IMG/VR virus record: IMGVR_UViG_3300013121_000032
Location: 57,236-121,235 of that record
From: a virus
Taxonomy: Duplodnaviria; Caudoviricetes
DNA length: 64,000 nucleotides
Strand: one strand, 5' to 3'
Shown: positions 7,928 to 62,578 of the stretch, piece by piece
Position numbering within the stretch: the stretch's first letter is position 1
Layout of the letters: the number at the start of each line of letters is the position of its first letter
Position numbers and translations under genes: made by a program
Notes under the pieces: model-generated
Databases searched by the model: none
What the model was told of the DNA's origin: nothing
The model's input: the letters and a program-made list of their open reading frames with translations, nothing else

Positions 7928-7934
7928 AAAGTTT

Positions 7935-8021
7935 GCAGGCATAGAGAAACGGAAGTCTCAATGGGTTCATATCCCTTTGCTTAATAGCCTTGGTAGGTTC
8001 AACTCCTACTGCCTGCGCCCA
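7935..8021 (+). tRNA. Atypical tRNA or tRNA-like RNA, anticodon CAU, long variable arm
   Basis: Acceptor GCAGGCA/TGCCTGC; D stem GAGA/TCTC with GG in the loop; anticodon stem ATGGG/CCCTT (one mismatch), loop TTCATAT; 15-nt variable region; T arm GTAGG-TTCAACT-CCTAC; 3' GCCCA. Confidence 0.85.
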
Positions 8022-33147: not shown

Positions 33148-33510
33148 ATGAGTAGTGCTAATTGGAAAAATGCAGAACGTAAGCTTGCAGAAGAGTTACA
33201 AAAAGAAGGAATACCAGCATATAGAGTATCACGGGCTGGAGATTTTGGCAAGTCGGATACTGATGTAAAGATTGAAGGTGCTGAATTCCTACAACTTGAT
33301 AGTAAATATACAGAAGCTAAGCCATTTAGACATCATGGATTACTTAGAGTAATTAAAGATAAGTATTGTAAAAAACCAGAGGATGTTCCTATTCTCTTCA
33401 CTAAGAATTATAAAGAGCATTCTGGCTGTATTACTGTGGAAGCAAAATTTTTTGCCAAACTTCTCCAAGCCTATCTGTTATTACAAAAAAGAGATAATAA
33501 AAATGAGTGA
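33148..33510 (+). CDS. Holliday junction resolvase-like nuclease
   Basis: WKNAERKLA..RV..DV..DSKY. Confidence 0.6.
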   Translation: MSSANWKNAERKLAEELQKEGIPAYRVSRAGDFGKSDTDVKIEGAEFLQLDSKYTEAKPFRHHGLLRVIKDKYCKKPEDVPILFTKNYKEHSGCITVEAKFFAKLLQAYLLLQKRDNKNE

Positions 33511-37895: not shown

Positions 37896-38494
37896 CAATA
37901 TGTGCGGCAGTTAAACGTGATGGAAAGGTTTTTGTAGGTGCAGATAGTCTAGTAGTAGCTGGTGGAGATACTAAAAGCTATACAACTAAAATAACTAAAT
38001 TAGGTTATAACATAATCCTTTATTCTGGTCTAGCTTTGGTTAAGAATATTCTTGATGAAATGGTTGATAATAAGCAGTATAAAAATCTTAATATTAACTC
38101 AGTAGCGGAAGCTAGAGATTTTGGGAAAACTGTTTTTTCAAGCTTAAAAGCAGAATTAGAAGATTCTCCATGGGGTCCACATTATACAGAAATGTCCAAG
38201 GATATTGGAGATCTTCTTATATGTACTCCTACTAAGATTTTTCAAGTTGATCCAGCTTTTAATTGTGCAGAAATCCATAATTTTATAGCTATTGGATCTG
38301 GTGCTCCGTATGCTACAGCAGTTCTAGAGTTTGGACTTAGAAATGAATATGAAGATTTGAAAGAACTTTTACATGAAGCAATTGACATTACATCTAAATA
38401 TAGTTTAGGATGTTCTTTACCAGCAGAAATTTTGGAAGTTGGAAGCAAGCCAATTAAGGTTTCTAGGAAACAAAAAAGAATACATATAAAATGA
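37892..38494 (+). CDS. HslV/proteasome-beta-like Ntn threonine peptidase
   Basis: N-terminal M-T nucleophile, GADS, K, AIGSGAPYA. Confidence 0.78.
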   Translation: MTICAAVKRDGKVFVGADSLVVAGGDTKSYTTKITKLGYNIILYSGLALVKNILDEMVDNKQYKNLNINSVAEARDFGKTVFSSLKAELEDSPWGPHYTEMSKDIGDLLICTPTKIFQVDPAFNCAEIHNFIAIGSGAPYATAVLEFGLRNEYEDLKELLHEAIDITSKYSLGCSLPAEILEVGSKPIKVSRKQKRIHIK

Positions 38495-44319: not shown

Positions 44320-44892
44320 ATGCCTGAATCAAAAGAAGTGGAAAATGCCCTTGCAGCGTTAATTAAACCAAATACAAGGCCTAGGGAGGGTATGCTTACC
44401 TCAAAAGCTTTGGCTTTCTATGCACATAGACGGCAAAAATATGCTGGTGAATCCTCATATTATATTCATTTGGAGATTGTTGCCCAACTAGCTAAACATT
44501 TTGGATTTGATAAAACAATTCAAGAAGCTGCTTATCTTCATGATATCTTAGAAGATACTAATGTAGTAGAACAAGATTTGAAAGATGCAGGAATCTCAGA
44601 TGAGATTATCTCTATTGTTAAGGCTGTAACTGATGAGCCTGGAAAGAATAGGAAAGAGAAGAAAAAGGCTACTTATCCAAAGATTAAAGCTAATAAAGAT
44701 GCCTTGAAACTTAAGCTTTGTGATCGATTAGCTAATGTAATGGTTTCTATTATCTGTGAACCAAGTAAGTTTAAGATGTATAGAGATGAACATCAAGAAT
44801 TTCTTGACAATCTGTATGATTCAGAAGATAATAAAGACTTTGCAATTGCAAAATTGTGGAAGGTTTTAGATGCTTTGTTGGTAGGTGCTTAA
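44320..44892 (+). CDS. Stand-alone RelA/SpoT-type HD hydrolase (small alarmone hydrolase/Mesh1-like)
   Basis: AH..Q..Y..H, AAYLHDILEDT, VKAVT, KLCDRLAN. Confidence 0.85.
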   Translation: MPESKEVENALAALIKPNTRPREGMLTSKALAFYAHRRQKYAGESSYYIHLEIVAQLAKHFGFDKTIQEAAYLHDILEDTNVVEQDLKDAGISDEIISIVKAVTDEPGKNRKEKKKATYPKIKANKDALKLKLCDRLANVMVSIICEPSKFKMYRDEHQEFLDNLYDSEDNKDFAIAKLWKVLDALLVGA

Positions 44893-45644: not shown

Positions 45645-46070
45645 ATGTCAGAAAAGACAGAAAATATGATGGAAACTCGTATTCAGCGCACTCCTAATGG
45701 AATTGCTTTGACTATTAAAAGCAAAGTTCTGGAAGATTGGATGAAAAACAATCGAATGGAAGGCTCTAATATGGAACAATCCTCTAATCCTGGCTGGAAT
45801 GGAATTAAAGGGTATAAATTGAAAGAAATTAAAGATTTTGATCTTTTCAACTATTGGGGTGGAGCATTAAATCAACCATCACCTAATTTGTCATTCTTCA
45901 GAGCAGAAGGTCTTGGAGAAGGTGTAACATTTAATCTTGAAGGAATTTATTCTAAACAAGTTCTTGATAAGTGGGTCCAAGATGCAAGAACCCATATGAT
46001 TGGTTTTTATAAGCGCTACATTAAAACCAAAGATATCACCTTAAGTGTAACCATTTCAGAGATTGAGTAA
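45645..46070 (+). CDS. Cassette 1, protein X (unknown family)
   Basis: PNLSFFRAEGLGEGVTF motif shared with 48854, 51001 and 61099; TAATG-coupled to the ligase. Confidence 0.8.
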   Translation: MSEKTENMMETRIQRTPNGIALTIKSKVLEDWMKNNRMEGSNMEQSSNPGWNGIKGYKLKEIKDFDLFNYWGGALNQPSPNLSFFRAEGLGEGVTFNLEGIYSKQVLDKWVQDARTHMIGFYKRYIKTKDITLSVTISEIE

Positions 46071-46741
46071 TGCCCAAATATATACATAAAATTGGAGTAG
46101 AGCTTGAAGGAGCTTGGCTATCCAGTAAAAATGTGGATAAAAGTTTTCATGGTGATGGATCCGTAAACATCCCTATTAATTATGATTCCAATGATAGGCC
46201 AGATCTTTTTGTTGGTGAAATTGCCTCAGATCCCATTTCTTATGAAAATGTAGAAAATTGGATTAGAGTAAATTATCCTGATAAAGTAAACCATACTTGT
46301 GGTTTTCATATTCATGTTTCATTAAAAGAAAATATGAATTATTTAAGATTAGCAACTGAAGAATTCAGTGCTTTCTTCTTTAATGCAATGACATCTTGGG
46401 GGGAATCCAATAAGCTCCATCCAGAAGATCAGTTCTGGTATAGGTTAAATGGATCTAATCATTATTGTAAAAAAGATTTTAAACCTGATGATCAGATCTA
46501 TGCAAAAACAAAAGGCGATAGCAGGTATACACAGCTTAACTTTTGCTATACCCTTCATGGAACATTGGAATGTAGGCTTTTGCCAATGTTTGGTGATGTA
46601 AACTTGACAATTAGTGCCTTTAAGGCGTATATTGATTGTATTGAAAAATTCCTAGAAGAAGCTCCAAATAATTTAACAGTTATAGAAGCCGCTATTTCAA
46701 TGGAAGATGCTAATAAGGAGGAAGAAGAATGTGTCTATTAA
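46070..46741 (+). CDS. Cassette 1, amidoligase (COOH-NH2 ligase, GS/GCS fold)
   Basis: IGVELEG, DGSV, GEIAS, CGFHIHVS, YC, RYTQLN, TLECR. Confidence 0.85.
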   Translation: MPKYIHKIGVELEGAWLSSKNVDKSFHGDGSVNIPINYDSNDRPDLFVGEIASDPISYENVENWIRVNYPDKVNHTCGFHIHVSLKENMNYLRLATEEFSAFFFNAMTSWGESNKLHPEDQFWYRLNGSNHYCKKDFKPDDQIYAKTKGDSRYTQLNFCYTLHGTLECRLLPMFGDVNLTISAFKAYIDCIEKFLEEAPNNLTVIEAAISMEDANKEEEECVY

Positions 46742-47352
46742 TTGTTGCTGAAACTGAGTTTCCTAGTGAAGCAGTTTTAAAAATAGGTGAGCAGCAAAAT
46801 GGAGATGGTGGCGGCCTTGCTTGGGTTAAAGACGGTCTTGTCCACTATAAAAAGAATGTTAAAGCAGCAGAAATGATGGAATTTGCTAAACTTGAGCCTC
46901 CGTTTATTTTCCACTTTAGAAAAGCTTCATCTGGACCTAAAAAGCCAGAATTGTGTCACCCTTTTCCAATTTCTAGAAAGAGTGAGCTTCACTTAGAGGG
47001 AACTACTAATATTGGTGTTCTTGCCCATAATGGACACTTTCCCCAATATTCAGGATTGTTGCTAAACTCTTTGTCTCCTAGAACCCCATTGCCTGAAGGT
47101 GATTGGTCAGACACTAGAGCTATGGCTTATCTTACAGCCTTGTATGGTGATTCATTTTTGAATCTTACAGATGAGAAGATAGCAATCTTGACTCCAACTG
47201 GAGTTACAGTATATGCTCCTCATAGATGGGTTACACATGGAGCTTTAAAACTTTCTAATGATCCATTTACAGGCTCAGCTACAAAATTTCCCGGAATTGA
47301 CCAAACCCGTTGGACAGATTCTAGCAAATTTGATCATGGATATTGTGATTAA
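46729..47352 (+). CDS. Cassette 1, class II (Ntn) glutamine amidotransferase
   Basis: MC N-terminus, NGDGGG, HFR, CHPFP, HNG, WSDTR. Confidence 0.88.
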   Translation: MCLLIVAETEFPSEAVLKIGEQQNGDGGGLAWVKDGLVHYKKNVKAAEMMEFAKLEPPFIFHFRKASSGPKKPELCHPFPISRKSELHLEGTTNIGVLAHNGHFPQYSGLLLNSLSPRTPLPEGDWSDTRAMAYLTALYGDSFLNLTDEKIAILTPTGVTVYAPHRWVTHGALKLSNDPFTGSATKFPGIDQTRWTDSSKFDHGYCD

Positions 47353-47357
47353 GAACT

Positions 47358-48852
47358 ATGTCAAAAAAAATTGATTTTGCTGTAGGAATGATGCATTTAA
47401 AGCCATCCCTAACAGGAACAAAAGGAGTTAAAGAAGCGGAATTTCAATATCTTATCTTTGATAGGGTATATAATCCAAATCTTTTGCCAACATTAATTAA
47501 ATATAAAGGAAAGTTCTTTAAACGCCATTCATATGATGGTAAAAAGAAAGAATGCACATTTAATGAAATAACTAAAGATGTTTATTGGAAAGACTTAGCA
47601 TCAAGTGAGTTTTGGGATCATGTCTGAAAATGCTAAACATATTACACCTGCTGACATTGAAAAGTTTTTTGAATTAGTTGTGCGTCCAGTAGATAGATGG
47701 AAAGCTCCTGATGATTGGATATTTTTTAATGGATTGAGGACAGAGATAAAAAATCTCGTTTATATGGGATTAAATCTAGTTCATGAGAATTGTATTCAAG
47801 TAGAAAAAGAAGCAATTAAAAGAAGTAATATTATTAGCAATGGAAAAAATAATTGTATTATTCCTTCTTGTAGGTTAGATTATCCACATAATTCCTATGC
47901 TCATCAGAATCAGACATCTAAAAGAACTTATGACTCAGGTAAGAGCATAGAAAAGCTTCCGGTTTTAACATCACCAGAGGGCTATCATAGAAAAGCACCA
48001 CTTTTCAAACCTATTGAACACTGTAGATCAGTAGATACTTTTAGAGGGGAGAGTACAATCTAATGCTTCCATATGGTCCTAGTTGGTTTCCAAACAAGCA
48101 TGTTGAGGACGGTACTTGTTATTATAATGTTCCAACTAATCAGGAATTTAGTGGACGTTGTGTTGCTTTAGAAATGAGAGATAAGCGATTTATGTTCACT
48201 AAAGACTATTGGAAAGCAGCACATATTAAACTTAAAAATATTACGGGTAATCATGCTTGGTTTCTGGGTCCAGCTACTCAATATTTTAAAAATAATAAAT
48301 CTTTAGGTGTATTTTCTATAGGAAATGCTGAAAGAGCTAGACCAATGACATCAGAAATTTACAATAATGGGTATTGGGAATCTAAAAGACAGTCTAATGT
48401 TGTAAACTATACTGTTTACAAAAGTACAGCCGAATATTTAAAAGAAATTTATAAAATCCAAAATAAACAACTAGTACAGTATCTAACTAAGAGGAATAAA
48501 ACCAATGAAAATGAGACAACCAAATCTGAAACGTCAACTAGTACAAGCAGCACAACTCCAACCAGTGGGAGGCTCCTTCCGATTGTTAGACCAAAGAGCT
48601 AATTTTCTAGGAATTAAGCTTCCATCTAAAGAAATGCCAACAGGTAAACGAAGTAGACGTAGCTTGCCTCCCAGAACCCAAATTAAAACATGGGAAGCAC
48701 TTAAGGACCGTGCTTTGGAAAATCTTTTGAAAGAGTTGACAAAATTGCGTGAAACTGTTAAGGTTCAAGAGAAAGAACAAAAAACTGCTACACGTTGTCC
48801 AAACAACTCCAGAATTTTAATGTTTCCTCCAGCAATGGGAAAAGTAAATTAA
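47358..48852 (+). other. Four hypothetical genes between cassettes 1 and 2
   Basis: ORFs at 47358, 47605, 48063 and 48505, closely packed or overlapping. Confidence 0.55.
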
Positions 48853-48853
48853 A

Positions 48854-49471
48854 ATGTCCTTTGATATATACACCAAACTTGAAAATGAGCTTTTTGAGAA
48901 GTTAAATAATAATATGCCTCCAAAGATTGAAATTCCAAAAACATCTAAAACACTCCTTAAAATGGAAGCCGATTGGAATGAGCATGGAGTAATAATTCAC
49001 TACCAATCTGAGGCTATTGAAAGATGGATGCAGCATGTTTCAAAACGTGGTGGAACTTTATCAAGCAATAATGTAGGATGGAAAGGTAAACAAGGATATC
49101 AAATTCCACAAGGGTTTGATATGGGAGATCCTAAAATATCTTATTTCAGGAGTTGGGGTGGTCCTTTGTTTTTTAATGGAAACAACACCCCTAACCTTTC
49201 CCCTTTATGTGCAGTTGGACTAAGTAAGGGAGTATCATTTGAATTCCAAGGACTCTATACTCCTGACACAGTTCAAAAATATATTAAAGAGACAAAAGCA
49301 ATTGTATTAGACTTACTTAAAGACTATTTTCGTAAATTTGATGTTGCTGATAATGTCTCAATGCAAGAAGCTTTTGAAGTTAAATTTAAACCAAAACTTT
49401 CTGAGGCAGAGAAAGAAGCACGTAGAATGCAAAGAAAGGCAGAAAGGTTAGCAGCTAAAAAGGTATACTAA
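48854..49471 (+). CDS. Cassette 2, protein X (with N- and C-terminal extensions)
   Basis: SEAIERWM, WGGPL, PNLSPLCAVGLSKGVSFEFQGLY. Confidence 0.8.
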   Translation: MSFDIYTKLENELFEKLNNNMPPKIEIPKTSKTLLKMEADWNEHGVIIHYQSEAIERWMQHVSKRGGTLSSNNVGWKGKQGYQIPQGFDMGDPKISYFRSWGGPLFFNGNNTPNLSPLCAVGLSKGVSFEFQGLYTPDTVQKYIKETKAIVLDLLKDYFRKFDVADNVSMQEAFEVKFKPKLSEAEKEARRMQRKAERLAAKKVY

Positions 49472-50088
49472 TGGCTAAATATATTAATTTGGTTGGCGTT
49501 GAATTAGAAGGTGGATGGATTGTTCCTCCTGTTGGTATATATCATGATGGTTCTGTATCTGGAGTAGCTGGACATAAAGGAGAATTTTCTACTAAACCTC
49601 CTGTAGAACCAGATAAGATTTCTCATTGGATAGCTCAGCATTATCCAGATTATTCTAATCAATCATGTGGATTGCACTGCCATATTTCATTAAAAAAAGT
49701 TAATGATTATATGCGCCTTATGACTCCTGAATTCCAAAAACATTTTTTACAAAAAATGGAGAAGTGGGGTAAAGATACTAAAATTCCTTCTGAACATCCA
49801 TTTTGGTCTAGATTAAAAGGGCAAAATCAATATTGTAAAAGAGATTTTATTCCTAATGATCAAGTTACTGGAGCTGGTAGCAGATATACGCAATTAAATT
49901 TTGCTTATTATAAATATAAAACCTTGGAATGTAGAATGCTTCCTATGTTTCCAGAAGGATCAAAATATGCAATTTCAGCTATTCAAACTTATTTAGATTG
50001 TGTAGAAGAATTCCTGGACAAATCTCCAAATTTGTCGTTTAATAAGATAAAAGAAGAAATTCCAATTGATGAGGATTTAGTAATCTAA
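49471..50088 (+). CDS. Cassette 2, amidoligase
   Basis: VGVELEG, HDGSV, GEFST, CGLHCHIS, YC, RYTQLN, TLECR. Confidence 0.85.
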   Translation: MAKYINLVGVELEGGWIVPPVGIYHDGSVSGVAGHKGEFSTKPPVEPDKISHWIAQHYPDYSNQSCGLHCHISLKKVNDYMRLMTPEFQKHFLQKMEKWGKDTKIPSEHPFWSRLKGQNQYCKRDFIPNDQVTGAGSRYTQLNFAYYKYKTLECRMLPMFPEGSKYAISAIQTYLDCVEEFLDKSPNLSFNKIKEEIPIDEDLVI

Positions 50089-50735
50089 TGTGTCTATTAA
50101 TTGTTGCTGAAGATAAGTTCCCTGCTTATGAGATTCTGAAAGCAGGTGAGAGCCAAAATCCAGATGGAAATGGCATTGCATATAGAAAGGCTGGAAAAGT
50201 TGAATTCCATAAAGGGATTACTTTGGATAGGATTATAGAGCTTGGTGCTAATAGTGCTCCCCCTTGGTTAATTCATTTTAGAGTTGCAACAGTAGGTCCA
50301 GCTTGTCCTGAACTTTGCCATCCTTTTCCTGTATCATTAAAAGCTCCACTTAATACTACTGGTCAAGTTAATGCAGTAGTAGCTCAAAATGGTAACTGGT
50401 TTAATTGGAGAGAAGGCCTATTCAGTGCTTCTAAATCAATGATTGGTGATAACTCACTAATTCCTAAAGATAATCTTTGGTCTGATAGTAGAGCATTAGC
50501 TTTTGTAACAGCAGTTCACGGTAAAAACTTTTTAAAAACCTTGCCTAGTGCTGGAAAACTTGCATATATGACTAATAATCTGCTTGAACGTTTTGGTTCA
50601 GGTTGGGTGGACAAAGGTGATGGAGTTTTTTGTTCCTATGATCCAGTGTATCGTTTTCAATGGTTTAATCGAGATTGGAGTGATGAAGATCTTCAAGTCT
50701 GGTGTAAAGCTAATGGATATGAAGTAGATTGGTAA
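50088..50735 (+). CDS. Cassette 2, class II glutamine amidotransferase
   Basis: MCLLIVA, NPDGNG, HFR, CHPFP, QNG, WSDSR. Confidence 0.88.
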   Translation: MCLLIVAEDKFPAYEILKAGESQNPDGNGIAYRKAGKVEFHKGITLDRIIELGANSAPPWLIHFRVATVGPACPELCHPFPVSLKAPLNTTGQVNAVVAQNGNWFNWREGLFSASKSMIGDNSLIPKDNLWSDSRALAFVTAVHGKNFLKTLPSAGKLAYMTNNLLERFGSGWVDKGDGVFCSYDPVYRFQWFNRDWSDEDLQVWCKANGYEVDW

Positions 50736-50772
50736 AAGGATCATTGAGGATCTTACGTAAATAATAATGTCT
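50735..50772. promoter_or_regulatory. Bipartite motif, copy 1: AAAGGATCAT-N12-GTAAATAATAATGTCT
   Basis: Both boxes recur identically at 60652-60689 and 60695-60732 with the same 12-nt spacer length. Confidence 0.75.
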
Positions 50773-50831
50773 AGTGTGAAACTTTTCTAACCTAGTGCTA
50801 ACTGAGCTAGTGGCCTGCCCAGTGCAAAGAT

Positions 50832-50859
50832 TAAACGGATCTCATTTGGGGTCCGTTTA
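50832..50859. other. Stem-loop in the intergenic region (terminator or processing hairpin)
   Basis: TAAACGGATCTC...GGGGTCCGTTTA inverted repeat with G-U pairs. Confidence 0.55.
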
Positions 50860-51000
50860 GCGCTAGCTGACATAAACTTATGCTAGCTCTGCTAGGAGTA
50901 AAATCGAAAGAATTTTAGGTTTTCTTCAGGTTTAACTAGCAAATAGTGTGCTAGTATTCAACCATTGAAACCCGCCAACCACCTTTAGGAGAAAAGTCTA

Positions 51001-51465
51001 ATGGCCAGTAAGAAAGTTATAGATGAGTTGACTATAGAAAGGATTCCTAATGGTATTAAGATCTTTTGTAGATCAGAAGCTATTGAGGACTTCATGAAAT
51101 CAATATCTATTAAGAATGCTGATGGAACACCAAAAACTGCATTTATTCCTAATTTTGCACAATCTCCAGCTACGAAGTTCTATCAATTAGATATTGCTGC
51201 TGATGTAGATAAAGCAATATTTGTTAGTCCTGCTGATCGAGGACTGCTTCTTAAGATAGGAACAGTATATGCTCCAAACTTGAATATTTTTAGAGCAGAG
51301 GGATTAGCTCAAGGTATTACCTTTATCTACGAGGGTCTATATCCCCAATCTCAGATTAAATTATGGCAAGAATTGACAATAGAAACTATTAAAAAATTAG
51401 CTAAGAAGTATTTTACAAATTTCAGGATTTCTCTTTCTTTGTCCTATCATGAATTGGAGGGTTAA
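51001..51465 (+). CDS. Cassette 3, protein X
   Basis: IERIPNGI, SEAIEDFM, PNLNIFRAEGLAQGITFIYEGLY; AGGAG RBS. Confidence 0.8.
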   Translation: MASKKVIDELTIERIPNGIKIFCRSEAIEDFMKSISIKNADGTPKTAFIPNFAQSPATKFYQLDIAADVDKAIFVSPADRGLLLKIGTVYAPNLNIFRAEGLAQGITFIYEGLYPQSQIKLWQELTIETIKKLAKKYFTNFRISLSLSYHELEG

Positions 51466-51468
51466 AAA

Positions 51469-52113
51469 ATGGCATGGCAATTTATCAATAGAGTAGGTCT
51501 TGAAATGGAAGGTAATTGGAAGTTAGATGCGCTTCCAGCCGGATTAGGTACTGATCAATCAGTAAGGTGTCCTAGAGAATATCAACGTACCCATAAGCCT
51601 GGTGAGATCAGATCTCCCCTTTTGGATCAGAAAGATATTGAGCCTTGGATTATGTCTAATTTTCCGCATATTACCCATCCTTCATGTGGATTTCATGTCC
51701 ATGTATCTTTTAAGGATGTTAAACATTATCTCCTTTTAATGGAAAAAGGTTTTTGGAGATACTATCGATCAGAAATGAGGAAATTCGGACATAGGATGAA
51801 ATGTAATGATTCAGATAGATTGTTATTTTTTGATCGCTATGATGGAACTAATCAGTTTTGTAAACCTAATTTTATGCCAGATGAGCAAATAGCGAATGTA
51901 AATAGCAATCGTTATACACAATTGAATTTCAATGCTTGGCATAGACATAAAACTCTTGAAAACAGACTATTTCCAATGTTCTCAGATCCCAAAATCGCTA
52001 CCTTAGCTGTATTAAATTATTTAAATATAATTGAGGGTTACTTGACAAAAACAACACCAATAGAAGATAAGATGACTACATCATTAGAGGTTGATCTAGA
52101 TGAAACGGATTAA
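51469..52113 (+). CDS. Cassette 3, amidoligase
   Basis: VGLEMEG, DQSV, GEIRS, CGFHVHVS, FC, RYTQLN, TLENR. Confidence 0.85.
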   Translation: MAWQFINRVGLEMEGNWKLDALPAGLGTDQSVRCPREYQRTHKPGEIRSPLLDQKDIEPWIMSNFPHITHPSCGFHVHVSFKDVKHYLLLMEKGFWRYYRSEMRKFGHRMKCNDSDRLLFFDRYDGTNQFCKPNFMPDEQIANVNSNRYTQLNFNAWHRHKTLENRLFPMFSDPKIATLAVLNYLNIIEGYLTKTTPIEDKMTTSLEVDLDETD

Positions 52114-52321
52114 AACTGATTCAAATACAATTCCTGAATTAGGATATGATGGAGATACAAAGCTATTAGAGATTAAGCTACATACAGGAGCTATTTATCA
52201 TTATAGAGAAGTTGATCAAGTAGATATAGATAAGCTTGCAATCTTCGATTCTGTAGGTAAGTGGTTTAATCAAACTATCAGAACAAAATATGAAGGAATC
52301 CTTATAGGATCTGAACCTTAA
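52100..52321 (+). CDS. KTSC-domain protein
   Basis: IPELGYD..LEIKL.TG.IYHY..V..SVGKWFNQTIR..Y. Confidence 0.8.
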   Translation: MKRIKTDSNTIPELGYDGDTKLLEIKLHTGAIYHYREVDQVDIDKLAIFDSVGKWFNQTIRTKYEGILIGSEP

Positions 52322-52375
52322 ACCAAATTGCAGTATTATAATGGCATCGCAACCAACCAAAGAGGGCTTTAGAAT

Positions 52376-53155
52376 ATGTGTTTGTTAATCGTTGCACCTG
52401 AACAATTTCCAGATGATGAAGTACTGGCTAAGGGAGAGGAAAAATTTGGATGGGATGGAATTGGTGTAGCCTGGCGTCAAAATGGTCTTGTCCATTGGCG
52501 TAAGGGTATTACACTTGAACAACTAAAAGCAATAGGTAAGGATACTAAAGGTCCATGGCTTATTCACTTTAGACAGTCTACAGTAGGAAAAGCTATGCCT
52601 GAACTTTGTCATCCTTTTCCAGTTAACAAAGACGTATCCTTGAAATTGGAAGGTAAGGCTATGAGTGTTTTGGCTCATAACGGTCACTGGAATAATTGGG
52701 CTAATCGTCTTTTGAATTCCTTAGGAAAACATGAACTTCCTGATGGTCCTTGGTCAGACACTAGAGCTATGGCTTTCTTAACTGCAATTCATGGACGTGA
52801 GTATATGAAATTGGTGGATCATGCCGAAACTGGGGATTTTGGTAGAATTGCAATCCTCTCTAACACTGGACCAGTGTTTATGATGGGTAGGAATTGGTCT
52901 AAATATAAAGATCTCCATGTAAGTGTTGATATTGGATGGTACATGAAGAAAAAATCATCTAATAAAACCACTAGTCCTTGGAAAGATAACTTGAAAGAAG
53001 GTTTGGCTAATTGGTCTATTACTGCTGGTAAGCAAAGAGCACTTCAAACTAATCCAGTACATGCACAATCAGCATTTAGCGCTGAAATACAATCCGAGCA
53101 TCATATACAAGTAGCTGAATGTCTGGAAGATATGGGAATTATTGAGGAGGATTAA
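52376..53155 (+). CDS. Cassette 3, class II glutamine amidotransferase
   Basis: MCLLIVA, DGIG, HFR, CHPFP, HNG, WSDTR. Confidence 0.88.
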   Translation: MCLLIVAPEQFPDDEVLAKGEEKFGWDGIGVAWRQNGLVHWRKGITLEQLKAIGKDTKGPWLIHFRQSTVGKAMPELCHPFPVNKDVSLKLEGKAMSVLAHNGHWNNWANRLLNSLGKHELPDGPWSDTRAMAFLTAIHGREYMKLVDHAETGDFGRIAILSNTGPVFMMGRNWSKYKDLHVSVDIGWYMKKKSSNKTTSPWKDNLKEGLANWSITAGKQRALQTNPVHAQSAFSAEIQSEHHIQVAECLEDMGIIEED

Positions 53156-53563
53156 AAAAATGTCATTAGTTAAAACTGAACCAAAGCTTGGGAAAGGAAC
53201 AGTAATTAGACCGTGTTCATGTAAGTCAAAATTTCAAGATGAGGTATATGGAAAAGGTCTTAGGGTTAAAAATTGCTGCCCTAAATCTGATAAAAACTCA
53301 TCTTCTGAACCAAGATGTACAGTTTGTGGAACACGTTAAATAAAACTAATCGAGCTGGGCATCTCGCTTAAAACTGCTATGAATTTTGATATTTCATGGG
53401 TACTTGTTTTTACTGGAAAGTCATATCTCATCATTAGAGCTAGCTTATTTGAGCAGCTAGTTAATCATCCTACCTTTTTTCGTAGTCCTCCTACTGGAGT
53501 AATTCGCTTTGCTCCTGGTGTATCATTTGCGCTTGTCCAAAAGCTTGCTAGAGGGGTAATGGA

Positions 53564-54214
53564 ATGTTAGAGGCAATTACTTTTAACAAGGATTGGCGGA
53601 ATTGGAAGAAAGGTGAAACTGTTGAATTTAGACCTGATATTAATCTCTTGGTTGGTGATCAAGGATCAGGAAAATCTTCTCTAATTCAGGCAATTTGTGA
53701 ATTCAGAGAAAAGCAATCTGAATATGCTCGTAGAATAAAGTTTTATATTTCAGATATTGAAAGAAGTATTAAACAAAAATCTACTACTAAACCAAAAATG
53801 GATGAAACCATTTTAACAATCAAAACAACTGATGATAAAGGCATCAATATTGGAGTGTACGATTTTGAGAAAGATAATCTAAGGACATTAAGCTATTTTA
53901 AGGAAGGTTGTACTGGTGTTCAAATTGCTATGAAATTCATGTCTCATGGTCAGGCTAATATGAGTATGTTAGAAAAACTTCATCAAAGTGATATTGGACT
54001 CTATATCATGGATGAGCCTGATACAGCCCTCTCTATCAAAAGTATTTACAAATTGATAGATATCTTAAAGAAAACTCAAAATCAATTGATTTTGGCAGTA
54101 CATAATCCTATACTGATTTCATCAGTTAATGAGGTCTATAGTGTTGAGCATAGACAATGGATGAAATCAGAAAATTTTATTAAGGAGTGTGAAAAATGCT
54201 TAGACAAAAATTAG
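53564..54214 (+). CDS. Stand-alone ABC-type ATPase
   Basis: INLLVGDQGSGKS, signature MSHGQ, Walker B/D-loop IMDEPDTALS, H-switch AVHN. Confidence 0.85.
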   Translation: MLEAITFNKDWRNWKKGETVEFRPDINLLVGDQGSGKSSLIQAICEFREKQSEYARRIKFYISDIERSIKQKSTTKPKMDETILTIKTTDDKGINIGVYDFEKDNLRTLSYFKEGCTGVQIAMKFMSHGQANMSMLEKLHQSDIGLYIMDEPDTALSIKSIYKLIDILKKTQNQLILAVHNPILISSVNEVYSVEHRQWMKSENFIKECEKCLDKN

Positions 54215-54531
54215 CTGCATTTTTGATTAATGAAAGAGCTTCATTATCATACAAACACTATGCTGCACTTTCAGAAATGCTTGAAGTATCTGCCTCTCTT
54301 ATTTCTCAATCAGAAACAGCTAAAGCAAATTTGGTTGCCATGCGTAATCAAGCAATTCAACACTATAATTTAGGCGAAATTACAGGACTTTCATTAAATG
54401 AGTTGGCTTATAAAATGGTTAATACCCATCCAACAACTAATAAAATTCAATTTCTAAAAGATCTCCGAGTTTTAACTGATTGTGGATTAAAAGAAGCTAA
54501 AGATGCTATTGATGCTCAATTTGGAGTATGA
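54196..54531 (+). CDS. Protein with a ribosomal L7/L12 C-terminal-like motif
   Basis: NKIQFLKDLRVLTDCGLKEAKDAID. Confidence 0.7.
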   Translation: MLRQKLAAFLINERASLSYKHYAALSEMLEVSASLISQSETAKANLVAMRNQAIQHYNLGEITGLSLNELAYKMVNTHPTTNKIQFLKDLRVLTDCGLKEAKDAIDAQFGV

Positions 54532-54810
54532 GTAGACGAATGGCAGAGGTTTTATTTATGTCATGGAGAGAGCATATTAGAACCAAGAATAAACTCAATT
54601 TAATGTCTTTTCCGCAAGAAGATCTTAAATTGATCATAAGTATTTTGGAGGAAAAGGCTTTTATGCTTGATGATCAATGCACATGGCAAAAACAAAAAAT
54701 GAGAGATCAGATCCGCAAAATTTTAAATAAGCTCTATGATGGAGTGGAGGGACATTAAAAATGGTTAATATGGGCATTGATGATTATGGGATTAAAGTGA
54801 GGGCTGAGTA

Positions 54811-55470
54811 ATGGCATCTAGATTGCCAGTTGTGGCAGCTATTGGAGTTGAGCTAGAGGGTGGATATACAAATGCTCGACATGAAAAGCTTGTAATGTTA
54901 TCCCAAAAAATTCCTCATTTAAAAGTTGGAACTGACGGAAGTATTGAAGTTCCTGATAGGTTTGTAGATGCTGAAATTCGGCTAGGTCCATTAGCTCCTA
55001 ATATTTTGCTTTCAAAACTAAAAGATTATTATCCATCTATAGGTAATAAAAGTTGTGGACTGCATGTTCATATGTCTTTTATGGAGGAGGATTATTATAA
55101 CCTTTTAATGGATAAAAGGCTTTGGATAGATTACATCTATCCACGAATGAGAGAATTTGGTATTGATTGTGGAATTCCAAAAAATCATCCATTTTGGGCT
55201 AGATTAAATGGACGTAATCAATATTGTAAGGATCATTGGCAACCAGAAATAGCAAATAAAAATCTTAAGCTCTATGGGTATAACCAAGAATACTGGCTTA
55301 GAAATGCAGATCGCTATGCTAGGGTTAATTTTAGATCTACTTATGAGCATAAAACAGTTGAGTTTAGATTTCTTCCTTACTTTGAAAACCCTTCATTAGC
55401 TAAAGCAGCAATTAAGGAGCTAGTTGATATTGTAGAAAGCTTTATTAGAGAGAATAGAAAGAAAGCATAA
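54811..55470 (+). CDS. Orphan amidoligase (4th paralog)
   Basis: IGVELEG, DGSI, AEIR, CGLHVHMS, HPFWARLNG.NQYC, RYARVN, TVEFR. Confidence 0.85.
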   Translation: MASRLPVVAAIGVELEGGYTNARHEKLVMLSQKIPHLKVGTDGSIEVPDRFVDAEIRLGPLAPNILLSKLKDYYPSIGNKSCGLHVHMSFMEEDYYNLLMDKRLWIDYIYPRMREFGIDCGIPKNHPFWARLNGRNQYCKDHWQPEIANKNLKLYGYNQEYWLRNADRYARVNFRSTYEHKTVEFRFLPYFENPSLAKAAIKELVDIVESFIRENRKKA

Positions 55471-55507
55471 ACTTTACTTGCAATTCGGAAAACTTGAACT
55501 AGTATAA

Positions 55508-56125
55508 ATGCATCGACACCGGGAGGGGATGCAGATGATTACTCAAGAACAATTCCAACTGCAAGCACTTATTAGAGATGGAAAAATTCCAGCTAAGTCA
55601 ATTCAATTTGCTTCTGATATAGCCTCTAAATCGCTCACAAGCTATAAACAAAGAGAGTGGGTGACTAAGCTAGTTCGTCAGTATTCTCAAGAGAAACTAG
55701 ACCTTAATTTGTCTAATGTTGTGGAAATGATGGAAAATGCAAAACGCCATCTAAAGTATCCAAAAATCAATCTGCAATTCGCAGACGGGAAAACATTTAG
55801 GCTTAAAGCCTCATCTAAGCATACTGGAGTATATATTGATGGTGGATCATTCCAGTCTGAGTATTTTGAGTATTTTGGAAAAATTACACCAGAAGGAAAG
55901 GCCTATCTCCAACAATCTGAATATAAAGATGAATTGGAGTTAATCTTGAACGCATTCAGCCAAGATCTCACCAAAAGTGCTAGAGATTATGGGCTTCTAA
56001 CAGGAAATTGCTGCTTTTGCCTCTCACCTTTGAGTGATGAGAGATCTACAGAAATGGGCTATGGTCCTATATGTGCTGATCATTATAATCTGAACTGGGG
56101 AAATAAAATTAGAAGGAGTTCATAA
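55508..56125 (+). CDS. Phage protein with a C-terminal zinc-binding DUF6011-like motif
   Basis: CCFCLSPLSDERSTEMGYGPICA. Confidence 0.7.
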   Translation: MHRHREGMQMITQEQFQLQALIRDGKIPAKSIQFASDIASKSLTSYKQREWVTKLVRQYSQEKLDLNLSNVVEMMENAKRHLKYPKINLQFADGKTFRLKASSKHTGVYIDGGSFQSEYFEYFGKITPEGKAYLQQSEYKDELELILNAFSQDLTKSARDYGLLTGNCCFCLSPLSDERSTEMGYGPICADHYNLNWGNKIRRSS

Positions 56126-57751
56126 TTATGGCAAAGCTTCATTACAATGTCAGAGATTGTGGAGACGGTTCAGTTAGTGTTAGATTGGGTCTTTTATTAT
56201 TGTATTAACCCTAATAATACTTGCATCCTTCAAGATTCATGCAGATTAAGGGAGAGTTTTTAAATGAAATCTGAAGAAATAGATCGGCTTGAATGGCTTC
56301 AATCTAATAATTTTAAATTTAATTTCTATACAGAAAGACATCTTTTTACTGAAGAAAATAATCTTGTTAAGAAATTTCTCCAGGAATACCCACAATTAAA
56401 TCTTTATATTAACACTATTTGTAATGTTGAGCAGTCATACACTTTCCAAATACGTGGTAATGTTGGTATTAATGAATTTGAATTAATTCAAACAGCACTT
56501 ACAGAGATTGATTTTCTATATGAGTTGAGATTTAGAGGACGATCAACCAAATATAAAACTTCAAATGAGATAACTATTAAATTTCCATCATGTAGAGCTG
56601 AAATTGTTAAGTTCTATAAAGCATTAAAGTTTTTGGTTAACAATTTTGATGTAGAGTTTAGCAATTATGATGGTTCAGCAATCATAAATAAAAATACTTT
56701 AGAAGCAGAATACTTTGCCTGCGGGAGTTAAGAAAAAATGCTAATTGAGATGTTTACTGAATTAACTAAGCGATACCTTATGAAATATGGAATTTCTAGT
56801 CTGATCAATCGAATTTTGTCTATTATTAGGGAATATGATACCGAGCTAAGAACAGAGGCAGCAATTCTTGGGAAATTTGATGAATCAATTAATGAAAATT
56901 GTTTAACAATTTCTGAATTTGCTCAACAAGTAACCGCACTTGCTTCCCAAACTTATATGGACTAAGAAAAATGAAAGTTAAAGAATTAATTGAAACTCTT
57001 CAAGGTTTTGATCCAAATGCTATAGTAGTATATAAAGATGATGGTGGAGATGCTCATGATGTAGATCGAGTTCATGGATTCAAACCTAAACAAATTATAA
57101 TCGCTTCACAAGAACATCAACAAATAGCTATAGATAATGATTGCCATGAAGGAGATCCAGAACAATGGTGCATTGATCAATTTGAAAATGTTTTTGATAT
57201 CAATCGTAATAGTAGTATTAAAGGAAAAACTGTAGTAGTCTTTGCTCCACAATTTTAGAGAGGAAGTACAATGAATCTAAATCATCAATGTTGTCAATGT
57301 GGAAATAAAAATCCTCATACTAATATTTGCCCTAAACATGGCAAGCATTGTATGCATCAAATGTCTAATGTATGCCCTCCTACATGCCCTATAAACCCGT
57401 TTGGATTGTGTAAGGAGCATTCACCCATTGAAAAGATTCTAGAGAGCTTTGAAGTGCTTACAGCCTTGGGTTTGGAAAACTTTTCTGATGCTTTGGGAGG
57501 ATAATGAATTGATGGATAAATTAATTAATCTTGGTGGTGGATTACGTATTAAAGTTCCATTTGTTAATGAAGAAATATTTAAGTTAATGAATATTTGTGA
57601 TATTTGCCAAAATGTTGGTGAAATTTATTACAATCTTATTTGGAATGGAAAACAGGTAATTTGCCGAGGTTGTGATCGTAGAATTAAATGGAATTAATTA
57701 GACTTGATAGGCTAAATCCCATATAATTGCAATGTAATGGAGGGATGCTAA

Positions 57752-57952
57752 ATGTCATTTAGTACTATCAAGTCAATGAAATTGAGAGAAGTTATTAGCT
57801 TTCTAAAGGCTAATGGATTTGAGCAGGTGGAATCAGGAAAACACCTGAAATTTAAAAACTCTGTTAATCAACAGATTTTGATTCCTCATCATGGTAAGGA
57901 TGTTTCAAAACGGATCTTGAAGGATCTTTACTTGATATTGGGGGGAAAGTGA
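57752..57952 (+). CDS. HicA-family mRNA interferase-like protein
   Basis: EVISFLKANGFEQVESGKHLKFKN..ILIPHHGKDVSKRILKDL. Confidence 0.8.
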   Translation: MSFSTIKSMKLREVISFLKANGFEQVESGKHLKFKNSVNQQILIPHHGKDVSKRILKDLYLILGGK

Positions 57953-58042
57953 AAGAGTTTGATATTTGCCAAATTTGAGCTTCTTTCAAAATTGCTTGAC
58001 AATTAGAGACTTATACTCAATAAAGTTCAGCGAGGGGTTATC

Positions 58043-58294
58043 ATGGACAAGCTTATCAATAAAATAGGATCTAACCAATTGGAAATCCCAACTAGTGAGG
58101 GAAAATTTCTTTTTTCTTATGAAACTCCTGTAGCATATGAAACTGCTGATGGGAAGGTTTATGTTACTCAAAAGAAATATTCTTTGACTACTACAAAGCA
58201 TATTAATCGTTGGCTACAACAAAAGCAAAATCCGGTATATGTGCCGCAAGAGGCAATTACAGCCACTTTTACAGGCGCTGGTTTGTTTTCTTAA
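58043..58294 (+). CDS. Small phage protein
   Basis: FSYETPVA..YSLTTTKHINRWL, a pattern I recognise from phage early regions. Confidence 0.6.
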   Translation: MDKLINKIGSNQLEIPTSEGKFLFSYETPVAYETADGKVYVTQKKYSLTTTKHINRWLQQKQNPVYVPQEAITATFTGAGLFS

Positions 58295-58661
58295 GGAGAT
58301 CTGATGACAGTACAGGAGCTTATTCAAGAATTACAGCAGATTGCAGTATGATCATAGTCGCTTAGAAACTGGAGGAATTGGAGTGGAATTTTGGGAGAAA
58401 GGTTATTCTAAAGATAATCTAAACGATGACAAAGTTGTTATTACTGTTCCTTGGTGTTAAAATGAAAGCTTATAAAATTATTAGCTATGTGTTGGATTTT
58501 GAAAATCATGGTCCTGCTGAAATAGAAGTTGAGTTTCAAAATTCTAATTTACATATCAATATTACAGAAATTTCAGAGGCAGAAATAGGAGAATGGAGTG
58601 ATGATCATCCATTAAATTCCTCTAATGCAAAGCTTGATGACTATAAATGGAGTAGACTAAA

Positions 58662-59279
58662 ATGATTACATTTAATATATCTGACCAGCTTCTTGATATT
58701 AGAAGAAAAAATAATTGGACTCAGAAACATTTGGCTAGAATTCTGAAAACTGACATTAACAATATTTCAGCTATGGAAAGAGGAAAGCCAGTTTCAGAAC
58801 CGCTAATTGCTTACTATAATAAACAATCACTTGATATCAATTTGGAGAGTAGAAATCCCATGTCAACAACATCAACACTTTATGAGAATAAATTTAGAGC
58901 TACTACAGCTAAGCCTGTTCTTGATTTCTCTGTTATCTCTGCTGCATCTAAATATTTCTCACCTGAAAAGGGTGGCAGCTATAAGATTAAATCAATAGCT
59001 GATGATTTGACGCTAACAGGCGCTGAAATGATGAAATTGCTTAATACCAATGGAATAGGCACCTATTGTAGAGATCAATATTTTCCTCCTAAATCAGAAG
59101 AACATAGGAAGCTATTTGCTGAGCTTCTGAACATCCTAATGCTTTCTCAGGTGGTATTCAAGGGTAAGGATGCAGAAAGGCGTTTGTGGCTCCGTCTACC
59201 TAACGCAGATTTTGAATATCAAGCGCCAGTCCTTGCTAATCGGCAAAAAGTGATTGACTACCTTAAGAGGCTTGCTTAA
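58662..59279 (+). CDS. XRE HTH fused to an Xre/MbcA/ParS-like antitoxin C-terminal domain
   Basis: RRKNNWTQKHLARIL..ISAMERG; C-terminal VF..RLWLRLPNADFEYQAP..V..YL. Confidence 0.65.
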   Translation: MITFNISDQLLDIRRKNNWTQKHLARILKTDINNISAMERGKPVSEPLIAYYNKQSLDINLESRNPMSTTSTLYENKFRATTAKPVLDFSVISAASKYFSPEKGGSYKIKSIADDLTLTGAEMMKLLNTNGIGTYCRDQYFPPKSEEHRKLFAELLNILMLSQVVFKGKDAERRLWLRLPNADFEYQAPVLANRQKVIDYLKRLA

Positions 59280-60651
59280 AAAAATGTTAGATTTTACACA
59301 GATTAAAGACTCATTTAGGGCTATACTAAAAGGAGTATTAATTTGCATTATTTCCATACTGGTAATTGCTGGACCTATCAAACTAATACAAGACAGAACC
59401 AATTATGAGATAAAGTTCATAAAACATTGTGAAGATCTTTATGAACAGGGAAAGCTTAAACGATTTGCTATGGAAACTAGATTAAATGAGGATGGAGAAC
59501 TGCAAGCAATTTGGGGTTATTGTTTACCTGATGGAACACTAATTGATAATATCCATATTTATTTATCTGGAAAACCATGGCGAAAATACCAACCTTAAAA
59601 TTCTCTAATGTTACTTTGAGAAAGAAAGATAATAAAAAATGGGTAATTAGCCTATGTCCACTTGGTATTCTTGATTCTATAGTATTAAGCTTTCTTATGG
59701 TTTTAGAGGGATTAATTGGACTTCTATCATTTGGGCTTTTAAGATGGGAAATATCGACCTTTTATCGTTTTTGGAATAAAGAAGGAATTTATTAAGATAT
59801 GAATAATCTTTTTGCTAGTAAGCCGGGATTGCGTCTATTTGCTATTGGAATAGCCTCAGCATGTATTGCTATATTCTCTTTGATTATTTTTGCAATTCTT
59901 ATGTGTCAAATACTTATGAGTATTAATGCTACTCCATTTATGTGGGGATTGTTTTGGGTGTATATGTTTGGTGGTGTAGCTCTTCAAGTTCTTATATTAG
60001 CCATTAGAAGGGAATCTGAAGCACTTACTGATGAGGCTAAAGCGGCTATTAAAGCTCTTGATAAGAATTAGTTAATTTGCCTTATGAGTGTTTTTGCCTT
60101 ATGATTAAATGAGTGAGAGGGGCGATTTTTAAGTCGCTTAAACCACGAGGAAAAAGAGTATTAAAAATGTTGGACCTATTTTATAGCAGCAACCCAGACA
60201 AATAACACCCTATTAATTTTAGGGAAAATAGTCAAGGCCTGTACTCCTAACCCTCCCACATAATTTTAAGGTGAACAAAGATGAATAGAATTAGAGCATT
60301 AAAGGCAGCTATTGAATATGCACTCTATGATCAAGATGAAAATTTCTCTTACTTCTGTCATAAGGATTTAGGATTAAATTCTGAAGAAGTTTTGAAAGAA
60401 TTAAATACTTGGCTTTACAATATTGAAAAAATAAGGAAAAATATAAGGATCTACAATAAATGAATCTAACTGAAGAAAAAATTAAGGATTTGGAATACAA
60501 TTTCCAACAAGCAAAAAATCAATTAACTGGCAATAAGCCATCATCTGTATCTAAACAACAAGAGCAAAACTATGGAAGGGCATATCAGGCTTTATATAAA
60601 GCTGGACTACGCCCAAAACTCAAAAAGAAATATCATATAGGCTGCTAAATG

Positions 60652-60732
60652 AAAGGATCATTCTATATTAGACGTAAATAATAATGTCTGAGAAAAAGGA
60701 TCATGGGCTTTTCGTGGTAAATAATAATGTCT
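60652..60732. promoter_or_regulatory. Bipartite motif, copies 2 and 3 in tandem
   Basis: AAAGGATCAT-TCTATATTAGAC-GTAAATAATAATGTCT and AAAGGATCAT-GGGCTTTTCGTG-GTAAATAATAATGTCT. Confidence 0.8.
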
Positions 60733-60777
60733 GAAAATCAGCCTTAAATCCTCCTACCAGGGTTAGTAGAGAGCTAA

Positions 60778-60835
60778 TAGACCGGTCATCTAGCTTCTTG
60801 CTATTGTAGACCGGTCATCTAGCTTCTTGCTATTG
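60778..60835. repeat. Perfect 29-bp tandem repeat TAGACCGGTCATCTAGCTTCTTGCTATTG x2
   Basis: 60778-60806 and 60807-60835 are identical. Confidence 0.92.
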
Positions 60836-61098
60836 CCTGTAACATTAAGTGGATTTAATCTCAACTTAACATCTAGTGCAGCTAGCACATTAGAGCAAAT
60901 TAATGTGTAACGTTAACTCAATCTCATAATTTGTGTGGCAATTTCGTGACATGGGGAAATATTAAATGCAATTAGACCGGTCGGTCTAAAATCGCTTAAA
61001 AATTTTAATAATTGGTGCCATAAATTTGCCACATTTGGCGCATTAAGATCCAAATAACCCGCGCGGAATGTTCCGCCGGATTTGGAGAAAACAAAATT

Positions 61099-61782
61099 AT
61101 GCCAAACTTTGAAAGCGCCTATTTCCGTGCTGGTCGTGTTGGTTCGTCCATTACATGTCCGCCATGTGGTAACCAACAAGAATTAGATACCAATTCAGCT
61201 TACATATTTGCACCAATAGAACATATTTCACTTACCGAATTATTTGGATCTACTCATGCGGATGTCAGGCAGAATTGGACTTGTAATTCATGCTCACAAG
61301 AAGCATGGCGAGAGCCGGTGAATCGACAAGAAGAGGTAGTTGCGGATTGTCCAATTGCACCTATTTCAGGCGAGTTTATTGAATTCGGATACATCTATCA
61401 GCCACATACTGGAAAGGTTACTTTCAAGGCAAAATCCAAGCACTTAGAAGATCTTTTCAAGCGTCAAGGTAATAACAGAAAAGTAACCCATGGTGGCAAG
61501 GAATACTGGTACATTCCTGACTCACTCAATTCTGGAATTGTAGACTCTATAAACTTGGGTATTAATACCGCCGGTTACAAGAACTATGGCGACTGGAATT
61601 TAGGCCATATTTTGAGATTACCTGGCTTGTCAGAAGGAATTGAAGTGGAGTACCCATGCTCTAATCCAAACGAATTGGATCTACTTGGTCCATTGTTCGC
61701 CAAACTGATGAAAGCTATTTATTCCAAATATCTTAAAACCAAAGAATACAGAGTAACCATGTCAATTGTTGATTGCCAATAA
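61099..61782 (+). CDS. Cassette 5, protein X with an N-terminal zinc ribbon
   Basis: CPPC..CNSC; SKHLEDLF; WNLGHILRLPGLSEGIEVEY; YSKYLK; GGAG RBS. Confidence 0.72.
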   Translation: MPNFESAYFRAGRVGSSITCPPCGNQQELDTNSAYIFAPIEHISLTELFGSTHADVRQNWTCNSCSQEAWREPVNRQEEVVADCPIAPISGEFIEFGYIYQPHTGKVTFKAKSKHLEDLFKRQGNNRKVTHGGKEYWYIPDSLNSGIVDSINLGINTAGYKNYGDWNLGHILRLPGLSEGIEVEYPCSNPNELDLLGPLFAKLMKAIYSKYLKTKEYRVTMSIVDCQ

Positions 61783-62578
61783 GGGAGGTGAAACTATGAC
61801 AATTATTGGAAATTGCCAGAATTGCAACGGGAATCATCTGTTTGGTTCGCCTTGCCAAACTATTGCGCCACCAAATTTGGTGGCACCAGCAATTAGTGAT
61901 AAGCGCTGGAAAGTAATAGCTGCAATTGGTTTAGAATTGGAGGGAGGCTGGCAAAATCTTAGTCAATTGAAATCTGACTATCAGAATGTACCGTCAATTC
62001 AATTCCATGCTGATAGTTCAATTGATGCGGTATCTGGTTCAGCACATGAGATTTGTATTGGACCACTTAGTCCGAGTCGGGCGTTTGACATGATCTTAGA
62101 ACATGGGATCTATCCTGATTCTGTTAATCAATCATGTGGTCTACATATGCATGTATCTTTTCTCAAGAAGGCGCATTACACCTTAGTTTCAAGCCATAAG
62201 ACTGAATTGTGGAATGACTATTTGTTGCCGACATACAAAGCATTTGAAGCCTGGCTACCTCAAAGGGACTTCAAGCGCCTATGGCAGCGAATAGACCCCG
62301 CAAATCATGAAAGATGCTCTCCGAGTCGCCATGAGGGAATCAATGGCGCTTATTGTTGTCCAGTCCAATCAGCTAATCGGTATGCTGCTATAAATCTGGA
62401 AGCATTGTCAGAACACAAGACAATTGAATTACGTGCCACTGGTGCTATTGAATCGCCTGCTAATGCAGTCAAGGCGCTTGGCTTGTTATTAGATTCAATT
62501 CAGAAATTTCTGAATGAATACAAACCAGCGCCTAAGACCTACTCGATTTCCCTCTCTTGTGCTGAATTGGGGGTTTGA
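61766..62578 (+). CDS. Cassette 5, amidoligase (probable start 61796) with an N-terminal Cys/His motif
   Basis: IGLELEG, HADSSI, HEI, CGLHMHVS, YC, RYAAIN, TIELR; GGAGGTG RBS before MTIIG. Confidence 0.82.
   Translation: MLIANKGGETMTIIGNCQNCNGNHLFGSPCQTIAPPNLVAPAISDKRWKVIAAIGLELEGGWQNLSQLKSDYQNVPSIQFHADSSIDAVSGSAHEICIGPLSPSRAFDMILEHGIYPDSVNQSCGLHMHVSFLKKAHYTLVSSHKTELWNDYLLPTYKAFEAWLPQRDFKRLWQRIDPANHERCSPSRHEGINGAYCCPVQSANRYAAINLEALSEHKTIELRATGAIESPANAVKALGLLLDSIQKFLNEYKPAPKTYSISLSCAELGV

Follow-up and report, generated by a model that had tools for sequence, protein, structure and literature searches.

In the present study, we analysed a 64,000-nucleotide stretch of phage DNA (positions 57,236 to 121,235 of IMG/VR record IMGVR_UViG_3300013121_000032; hereafter the window), in which a three-gene unit occurs three times. 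The unit encodes a small protein of an unnamed family (X), a minimal amidoligase (L) and a class II glutamine amidotransferase-type protein (GATase, G). This X-L-G triad is the core of an already known phage cassette, the phiEco32-type amidoligase cassette; the novelty lies in the X family, in the minimal and detachable form of the triad, and in its repeated amplification.

Composition of the array

The window covers the right-hand 64 kb of one 121,235-base phage contig from activated sludge, a genome rated 100% complete. All 13 open reading frames (ORFs) that a first-pass annotation had named were confirmed at their coordinates and lie on the + strand, and the recurring gene order and the mostly overlapping or nearly abutting junctions that it described are evident from these coordinates: there are three X-L-G triads, one X-L pair and one lone ligase. 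The array comprises the following genes (aa, amino acids; pLDDT, predicted local distance difference test; GS, glutamine synthetase; GCS, gamma-glutamylcysteine synthetase; Ntn, N-terminal nucleophile).

45645-46070, + strand: X1, unnamed family, 141 aa (model pLDDT 93.7; best fold-search Z 4.6)
46070-46741, + strand: L1, putative minimal GS/GCS-fold amidoligase, 223 aa (25/26 conserved columns)
46729-47352, + strand: G1, class II (Ntn) glutamine amidotransferase-type protein, 207 aa (family motifs, profile)
48854-49471, + strand: X2, 205 aa, extended at both ends (paralogue/profile match)
49471-50088, + strand: L2, 205 aa, the copy used for the model (pLDDT 93.5; GS/GCS matches; 26/26 columns)
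50088-50735, + strand: G2, 215 aa (23/24 conserved columns)
51001-51465, + strand: X3, 154 aa (paralogue/profile match)
51469-52113, + strand: L3, 214 aa (the sole copy over the PF12224 cut-off, 23 vs 22 bits)
52100-52321, + strand: KTSC-domain gene within triad 3 (PF13619, E 7e-13)
52376-53155, + strand: G3, 259 aa (Cys2, HFR, HNG and Asp retained; Asn24 replaced)
54811-55470, + strand: L4, lone ligase, 219 aa (catalytic set intact; phrog_2443, E 2e-6)
61099-61782, + strand: X4, 227 aa, divergent, with an N-terminal CxxC...CxxC extension (6/10 conserved columns)
61796-62578, + strand: L5, ligase with an N-terminal Cys/His zinc-knuckle-like segment (not followed by a GATase)

The paralogue sets of X, L and G are complete, no additional copies being present in the whole 121,235-base genome. 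The joined window triads are 36-38% identical, DNA similarity is left only in motif patches, and nearly all conserved columns are kept, which calls for long purifying selection on each copy. Contigs from a public sequencing run cover 28 of 30 bins without differences; the run is probably that of the source sample, so this agreement excludes a mis-join and nothing further. The first-pass view that the copies are diverged yet intact, and hence neither a recent duplication nor an assembly artefact, is therefore well founded. The KTSC gene is indeed inserted in triad 3, as had been noted, and is not a recurrent neighbour in related loci.

The five ligases share 21-45% mutual identity (by alignment or BLAST) and mutual phmmer E values of 1e-12 to 1e-52. 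Each retains 23-26 of the 26 columns that are conserved in 90% or more of the 139 family members compared, in agreement with the earlier description of all five as motif-intact. The metal/nucleotide ligand pattern of ExE, an acidic residue, HxH, Arg and ExR is likewise retained in all five; its correspondence to GS residue numbers is presumed here from general knowledge and not from a residue-level superposition. When the AlphaFold model of L2 was searched against 48,161 chains, the top 19 matches all belonged to the GS, glutamate-cysteine ligase (GCL), PafA or Dop families (Z 6.5-9.8, 146-168 residues aligned; best Z 9.8 with a root-mean-square deviation of 3.0 over 160 residues), in support of the GS/GCS fold proposed beforehand. 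In the model, L is a bare GS/GCS catalytic core of ~190 aa that lacks the GS N-terminal domain. By sequence, L is a fringe member of PF12224 (Amidoligase_2) related to gp007 of phage PA11: the PF12224 match is borderline, with one window copy (L3) over the cut-off and 17 of 36 relatives matching, and hhalign gave 91.9% for PA11 gp007 and 99.7% for longer PF12224-like forms. L1 and X1 had no tblastn match in 50,697 GenBank phage records. L4 is without the acidic C-terminal tail present in L1-L3. For L5, the ATG at 61796, with its good ribosome-binding site, is the probable start (the ORF is open from 61766). The CxxCxxxHxxxxC segment ahead of the ligase in L5 (61796-61870) was also observed in the longer proteins P0245, P0251 and P0252 and suggests nucleic-acid or protein binding in some ligase branches.

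The three GATases were correctly assigned to class II. G2 and G3 are 37-42% identical to G1 and each of the three keeps 23 of 24 conserved columns, G3 having Phe in place of the conserved Asn24. The class II (Ntn) features are present, namely the N-terminal Cys, the oxyanion Asn-Gly, and the substrate-binding Arg and Asp, and 23 relatives share the motifs Cys2, HFR, HPF, HNG and Asp. G matches the Pfam GATase_6/GATase_4 profiles and, in the ESM Atlas, clusters at a template-modelling score of 0.74-0.84, some of which carry GATase_6/GATase_4; its best Protein Data Bank (PDB) profile match, the YafJ-like 1te5, is weak (E 0.23). These motifs would bind a glutamyl group and do not distinguish glutamine from a gamma-glutamyl amide.

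X1-X3 are clear paralogues (pairwise E 1e-8 to 1e-17). X4 is not significantly similar to them in pairwise comparison (E 0.06-0.8) but belongs to the family by profile (E 1e-16), and its N-terminal extension is Cys-rich. A profile search placed 573 clusters at 50% identity in the X family, and in the searches made X occurred in uncultured phages only. No Pfam family was found for 129 X proteins, and searches of the PDB, BFVD and the ESM Atlas returned nothing convincing for the fold (the Z of 4.6 given above), despite the confident model; such an absence does not by itself make the fold new. X showed no similarity to the longer amidoligases, the PF14395 ligases or other cassette genes, and PADLOC gave no match for any part of the array. 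Conservation in X is structural (Ser, Tyr, Asn, Gly, Gly), with no invariant catalytic set, and X evolves fastest of the three, with a mean identity of 21% against 34% and 35%; in locus L005 it reaches 620 aa through added N-terminal parts. The C-terminal 15 residues form a conserved amphipathic strand of alternating hydrophobic residues, which finds no pairing partner in the monomer model, and the final residue is unconserved in 150 X proteins (Leu 20, Glu 16, Val 16, Ile 15), a combination that would suit a partner-binding strand and not a Pup-like tag.

Linkage of the triad and its origin in the phiEco32-type cassette

Related loci were gathered by ligase patterns, and all locus counts given here are samples among the matches listed, not a census. 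Adjacency was counted for 91 non-redundant ligases, with two multi-copy genomes left out. X lies immediately 5' of L in 61 of 69 ligase loci with enough flank, G adjoins L in 69 of 76, and a complete adjacent X-L-G was found in 49 of 62 unrelated loci, the exceptions being mostly fusions or local rearrangements. The co-occurrence of X with ligase and GATase, a check proposed in the first-pass annotation, is thus borne out, as is its view of X as an uncharacterised protein tied to the ligase. When X homologues were chosen independently of L, all four had L directly downstream. In P0241, the C-terminus of X is joined to L in a natural fusion (hhalign 98.4%), and L081, L032 and P0233 are likely further X-L fusions with weaker support; a shared-word search restricted to 399-2000 aa returned no long X fusions, and it also missed the known fusion P0241. 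In loci L024-L028, another class II GATase takes the place of G after X and L. The longer amidoligases (290-390 aa) do pair with G, and no X was detected beside them. X is thus tied more closely to the short ligase than to G. Covariation in 62 paired triads, a shallow set, did not place X-L above shuffled pairings, and X-G and L-G were marginal. A scan of cellular genomes returned a single locus, on a contig of a metagenome-assembled genome, and it has neither X nor L.

A phage amidoligase cassette was reportedly described by Iyer et al. in 2009. In phages phiEco32, LUZ24, PA11 and RIO-1, the cassette comprises a PF14395 ligase, a small gene, a PF12224-type amidoligase and a class II GATase, and a role in unusual peptidoglycan linkages and superinfection exclusion has been proposed, as a hypothesis only (PMC5498523, PMC3890496). 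In the window genome, too, an amidoligase stands next to a class II GATase, and neighbour clustering over 106 locus groups found ATP-grasp genes in 35 and PF14395 in 34, together with genes for gamma-glutamylcyclotransferase (GGCT) and GNAT-like proteins. The common order in related loci is GGCT, PF14395, X, L, G, an unknown gene and ATP-grasp, with X in the slot of the small gene; EP335, PA11, LAh_8 and UFV-P2 have an unknown gene of 175-200 aa between the PF14395 ligase and the amidoligase, which is this slot. Comparison of X with the canonical small gene (phrog_4877, phrog_11055; PaP3 p47 / PA11 gp006 type) showed no similarity between the sequence profiles (hhalign 0.4%), a comparison by which remote kinship might be missed. 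When a triad no more than 8 kb from PF14395, ATP-grasp or GGCT genes is counted as cassette-embedded, 19 of 36 long loci are embedded and 17 are not. The window genome also retains a cassette member, missed in the first-pass annotation:

8278-9639, + strand: PF14395 phiEco32-type COOH-NH2 ligase type 2, displaced cassette member (E 6e-12, above cut-off)

This solitary ligase has a tRNA gene on one side and ribonucleotide reductase on the other and is separated from the triads by 36 kb, whereas PF14395 is clustered with them in the 34 locus groups and in L154, a 140-kb syntenic relative that shares a helicase, a glycosyltransferase and two more genes with the window phage. In L154, three X, two L and four G genes lie beside a PF14395 ligase (39% identical to that of the window), GNAT-like genes and GGCT. 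The embedded loci, the clustering in L154 and the retained PF14395 gene together indicate that the window array is a derived, amplified piece of the phiEco32-type cassette, and the earlier view of the unit as distinct from the phiEco32 system cannot be upheld. Its observation that ATP-grasp and GGCT genes are absent holds genome-wide, and two complete triad-bearing genomes are without any ATP-grasp. The triad differs from the cassette in further respects: L is ~190-220 aa against 315-385 aa for the cassette amidoligase, G is ~190 aa against 440-610 aa for the cassette GATase, and the triad is often alone and amplified. Two further families were observed in these loci: an unnamed family of small proteins that have a CCG motif and a faint GNAT likeness and often occur repeatedly in cassette-embedded loci (L008:13603-14319 and relatives; 35 proteins, 19 locus groups), and an unnamed Cys-rich gene of 250-390 aa, 3' of G in 25 locus groups.

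Amplification was also observed outside the window phage. G001 (IMGVR_UViG_3300029922_000015), an unrelated 150-kb genome with only four other proteins in common with the window phage, carries eight ligases, two GATases and two to three X (93320-126953; loci L137-L139). Six of these ligases stand alone among small genes, and three are eroded, with 17-18 of 26 columns. In trees, the window and L154 triads group together (90/90) and the two G001 triads form a separate clade (100/100), which indicates that the whole triad was amplified independently at least twice. Monophyly of the three window triads received 93 in a quick tree and was unresolved in a careful one (46/31), so that our claim is limited to two independent amplifications. 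Several PF14395 ligases and GATases were seen in L130 (5214-19692), and three GATases, two ligases and two X in L064 (1-9720). The retention of intact duplicated units in at least two lineages suggests that the copies now differ in substrate or host, and lone ligases, which are common in amplified genomes, might borrow X and G in trans. A literature search returned no description of the X-L-G triad or its multi-copy forms, although X might stand in the supplement of Iyer et al. 2009; the X family and the repeated amplification appear to be undescribed so far.

Mechanism of the triad and alternative readings

Herein, we tentatively propose that the triad is a glutamine-dependent amidotransferase in which X is an accessory subunit of the ligase, a proposal to which we give slightly less than an even chance. 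The three proteins would form a small, three-subunit, glutamine- and ATP-dependent enzyme. The N-terminal Cys of G would hydrolyse glutamine and release ammonia; L would activate a carboxylate as an acyl phosphate and then join the released ammonia to it, the substrate being most likely a glutamyl group on a peptide, a protein or a cell-wall precursor. X would be a non-catalytic, L-bound subunit that completes or couples the complex, with a role like that of GatC or PurS (by analogy, not homology), and the triad would be the core that can detach from the phiEco32-type cassette, as carried by a large lineage of uncultured phages. GatCAB and PurLQS each combine a glutaminase, an ATP-dependent synthetase and a small non-catalytic subunit, and GatB belongs to the wider GS/guanido-kinase fold group. 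The triad would have the same three-part composition, but its putative glutaminase is of the Ntn class, not an amidase or class I, and L lacks a tRNA-binding domain; neither GatC nor PurS was listed among the fold-search matches of X. The fusion and gene-order data fit X as a structural partner of L at least as well as a specificity factor.

Several observations weigh against this proposal. The lone L4, the X4-L5 pair without G, the six lone ligases of G001 and an X-G pair without L in L154 indicate that the three genes are not strictly obligate neighbours. Moreover, GATase_4, to which G is closest by profile, includes gamma-glutamyl hydrolases that undo ligation, and EgtC of ergothioneine synthesis removes glutamate (PMC5790434). 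GGCT, another gamma-glutamyl remover, recurs as a neighbour in related loci and sits in the cassette form. These points favour a scheme in which L attaches the gamma-carboxyl of glutamate to an amine (on a small molecule, peptide or lysine), G later cleaves the product and X is a partner of L; we regard it as doubtful but deserving serious consideration. The fold neighbours of L include the gamma-glutamyl-amine ligases naphthylamine GS, GmaS, GCL and PafA, the YafJ-like PDB match of G points the same way, and EgtA/EgtC provides a precedent in which, as in the triad, a ligase of the GCS fold has a class II amidotransferase-type enzyme as its partner (PMC5790434). However, the Egt pair brackets other enzymes, the window array is without EgtB, D and E, and the Egt system has no equivalent of X. 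About half of the long loci hold the triad without a further pathway enzyme for a protected intermediate, a coupled 1:1 pair alone risks a futile cycle, and the motifs of G suit glutamine and gamma-glutamyl amides equally.

The multiple copies admit other explanations. X might be a variable adaptor through which L and G are directed to particular host targets, the copies serving as takeover or counter-defence effectors; the rapid change of X, its gain of N-terminal parts (X4 and the L005 form), the recurrent amplification and a repeated promoter-like motif ahead of two units are consistent with this, but X has yielded no target-binding domain, fast evolution is also seen in small non-enzymatic subunits, and single-copy triads are usual (four of five genomes checked), and we consider it quite unlikely. 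It is improbable that the extra copies merely repeat one reaction and that the partial ones are heading to loss: partial units occur in all three multi-copy genomes and G001 has its three eroded ligases, yet the window triads retain nearly every conserved column at such low identity. A Pup-like role, in which X would be a protein tag deamidated by G and ligated to targets by L, is scarcely credible. PafA and Dop have the fold of L and the termini of X are often acidic, but no conserved free C-terminal Gln/Glu was found across the 150 X proteins, as a Pup/PafA system would have it, and X is a folded domain in the model, with its C-terminus fused to L in natural fusions. The amidotransferase, ligation-and-cleavage and host-targeting readings are not fully exclusive. 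A bolder combination, which we consider unlikely, is that X-L-G works on its own as a phage enzyme, one of its subunits having a fold not yet described, to amidate or glutamylate macromolecules of the host, and that it was amplified as a set of diversified effectors, each with its own host target or defence.

Neighbouring features and biological meaning

A bipartite motif, AAAGGATCAT-N13-TAAATAATAATGTC, was observed in three exact copies in the window, with none in 100 shuffles and none elsewhere in IMG/VR:

50735-50771, + strand: bipartite motif, copy 1, ~230 nt upstream of X3
60652-60688 and 60695-60731, + strand: bipartite motif, two tandem copies, ~370 nt upstream of X4

The motif may be recognised as a promoter by the sigma factor that the phage itself encodes (33383-34582). 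Ahead of X4 there are also a perfect 29-nt intergenic tandem repeat (60778-60835) and further GACCGGTC palindromes near 60975-60990, a stretch that may serve as an origin or operator. A stand-alone HD_4 gene (SpoT/Mesh1-like hydrolase, 44320-44892) lies a short distance 5' of triad 1, and a stand-alone ABC/SMC-type ATPase (53564-54214) lies between triad 3 and L4. A small protein just upstream of L4 (54196-54531) has a ribosomal L7/L12 C-terminal-like Pfam match above cut-off (E 2e-6). A proteasome/HslV-type Ntn subunit (37892-38494; PF00227, E 2e-8) is present in the window and also in L154. Within 6296-8021, a TROVE/Ro60-type RNA-binding protein (phrog_850) immediately precedes the sole tRNA gene of the window, tRNA-Met(CAT) (7934-8021).

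The phiEco32-type cassette comprises seven or more genes, and partly for this reason its product has been elusive since 2009. The triad identifies which three of these genes can travel alone, and its proteins are small (140-220 aa) and well folded, with natural paralogues for swaps and natural fusions, which makes a direct test possible. X is a large unnamed protein family without a recognised fold, seen in uncultured phages, and the repeated amplification of the unit, with up to eight ligases per genome, hints at a role in conflict with the host.

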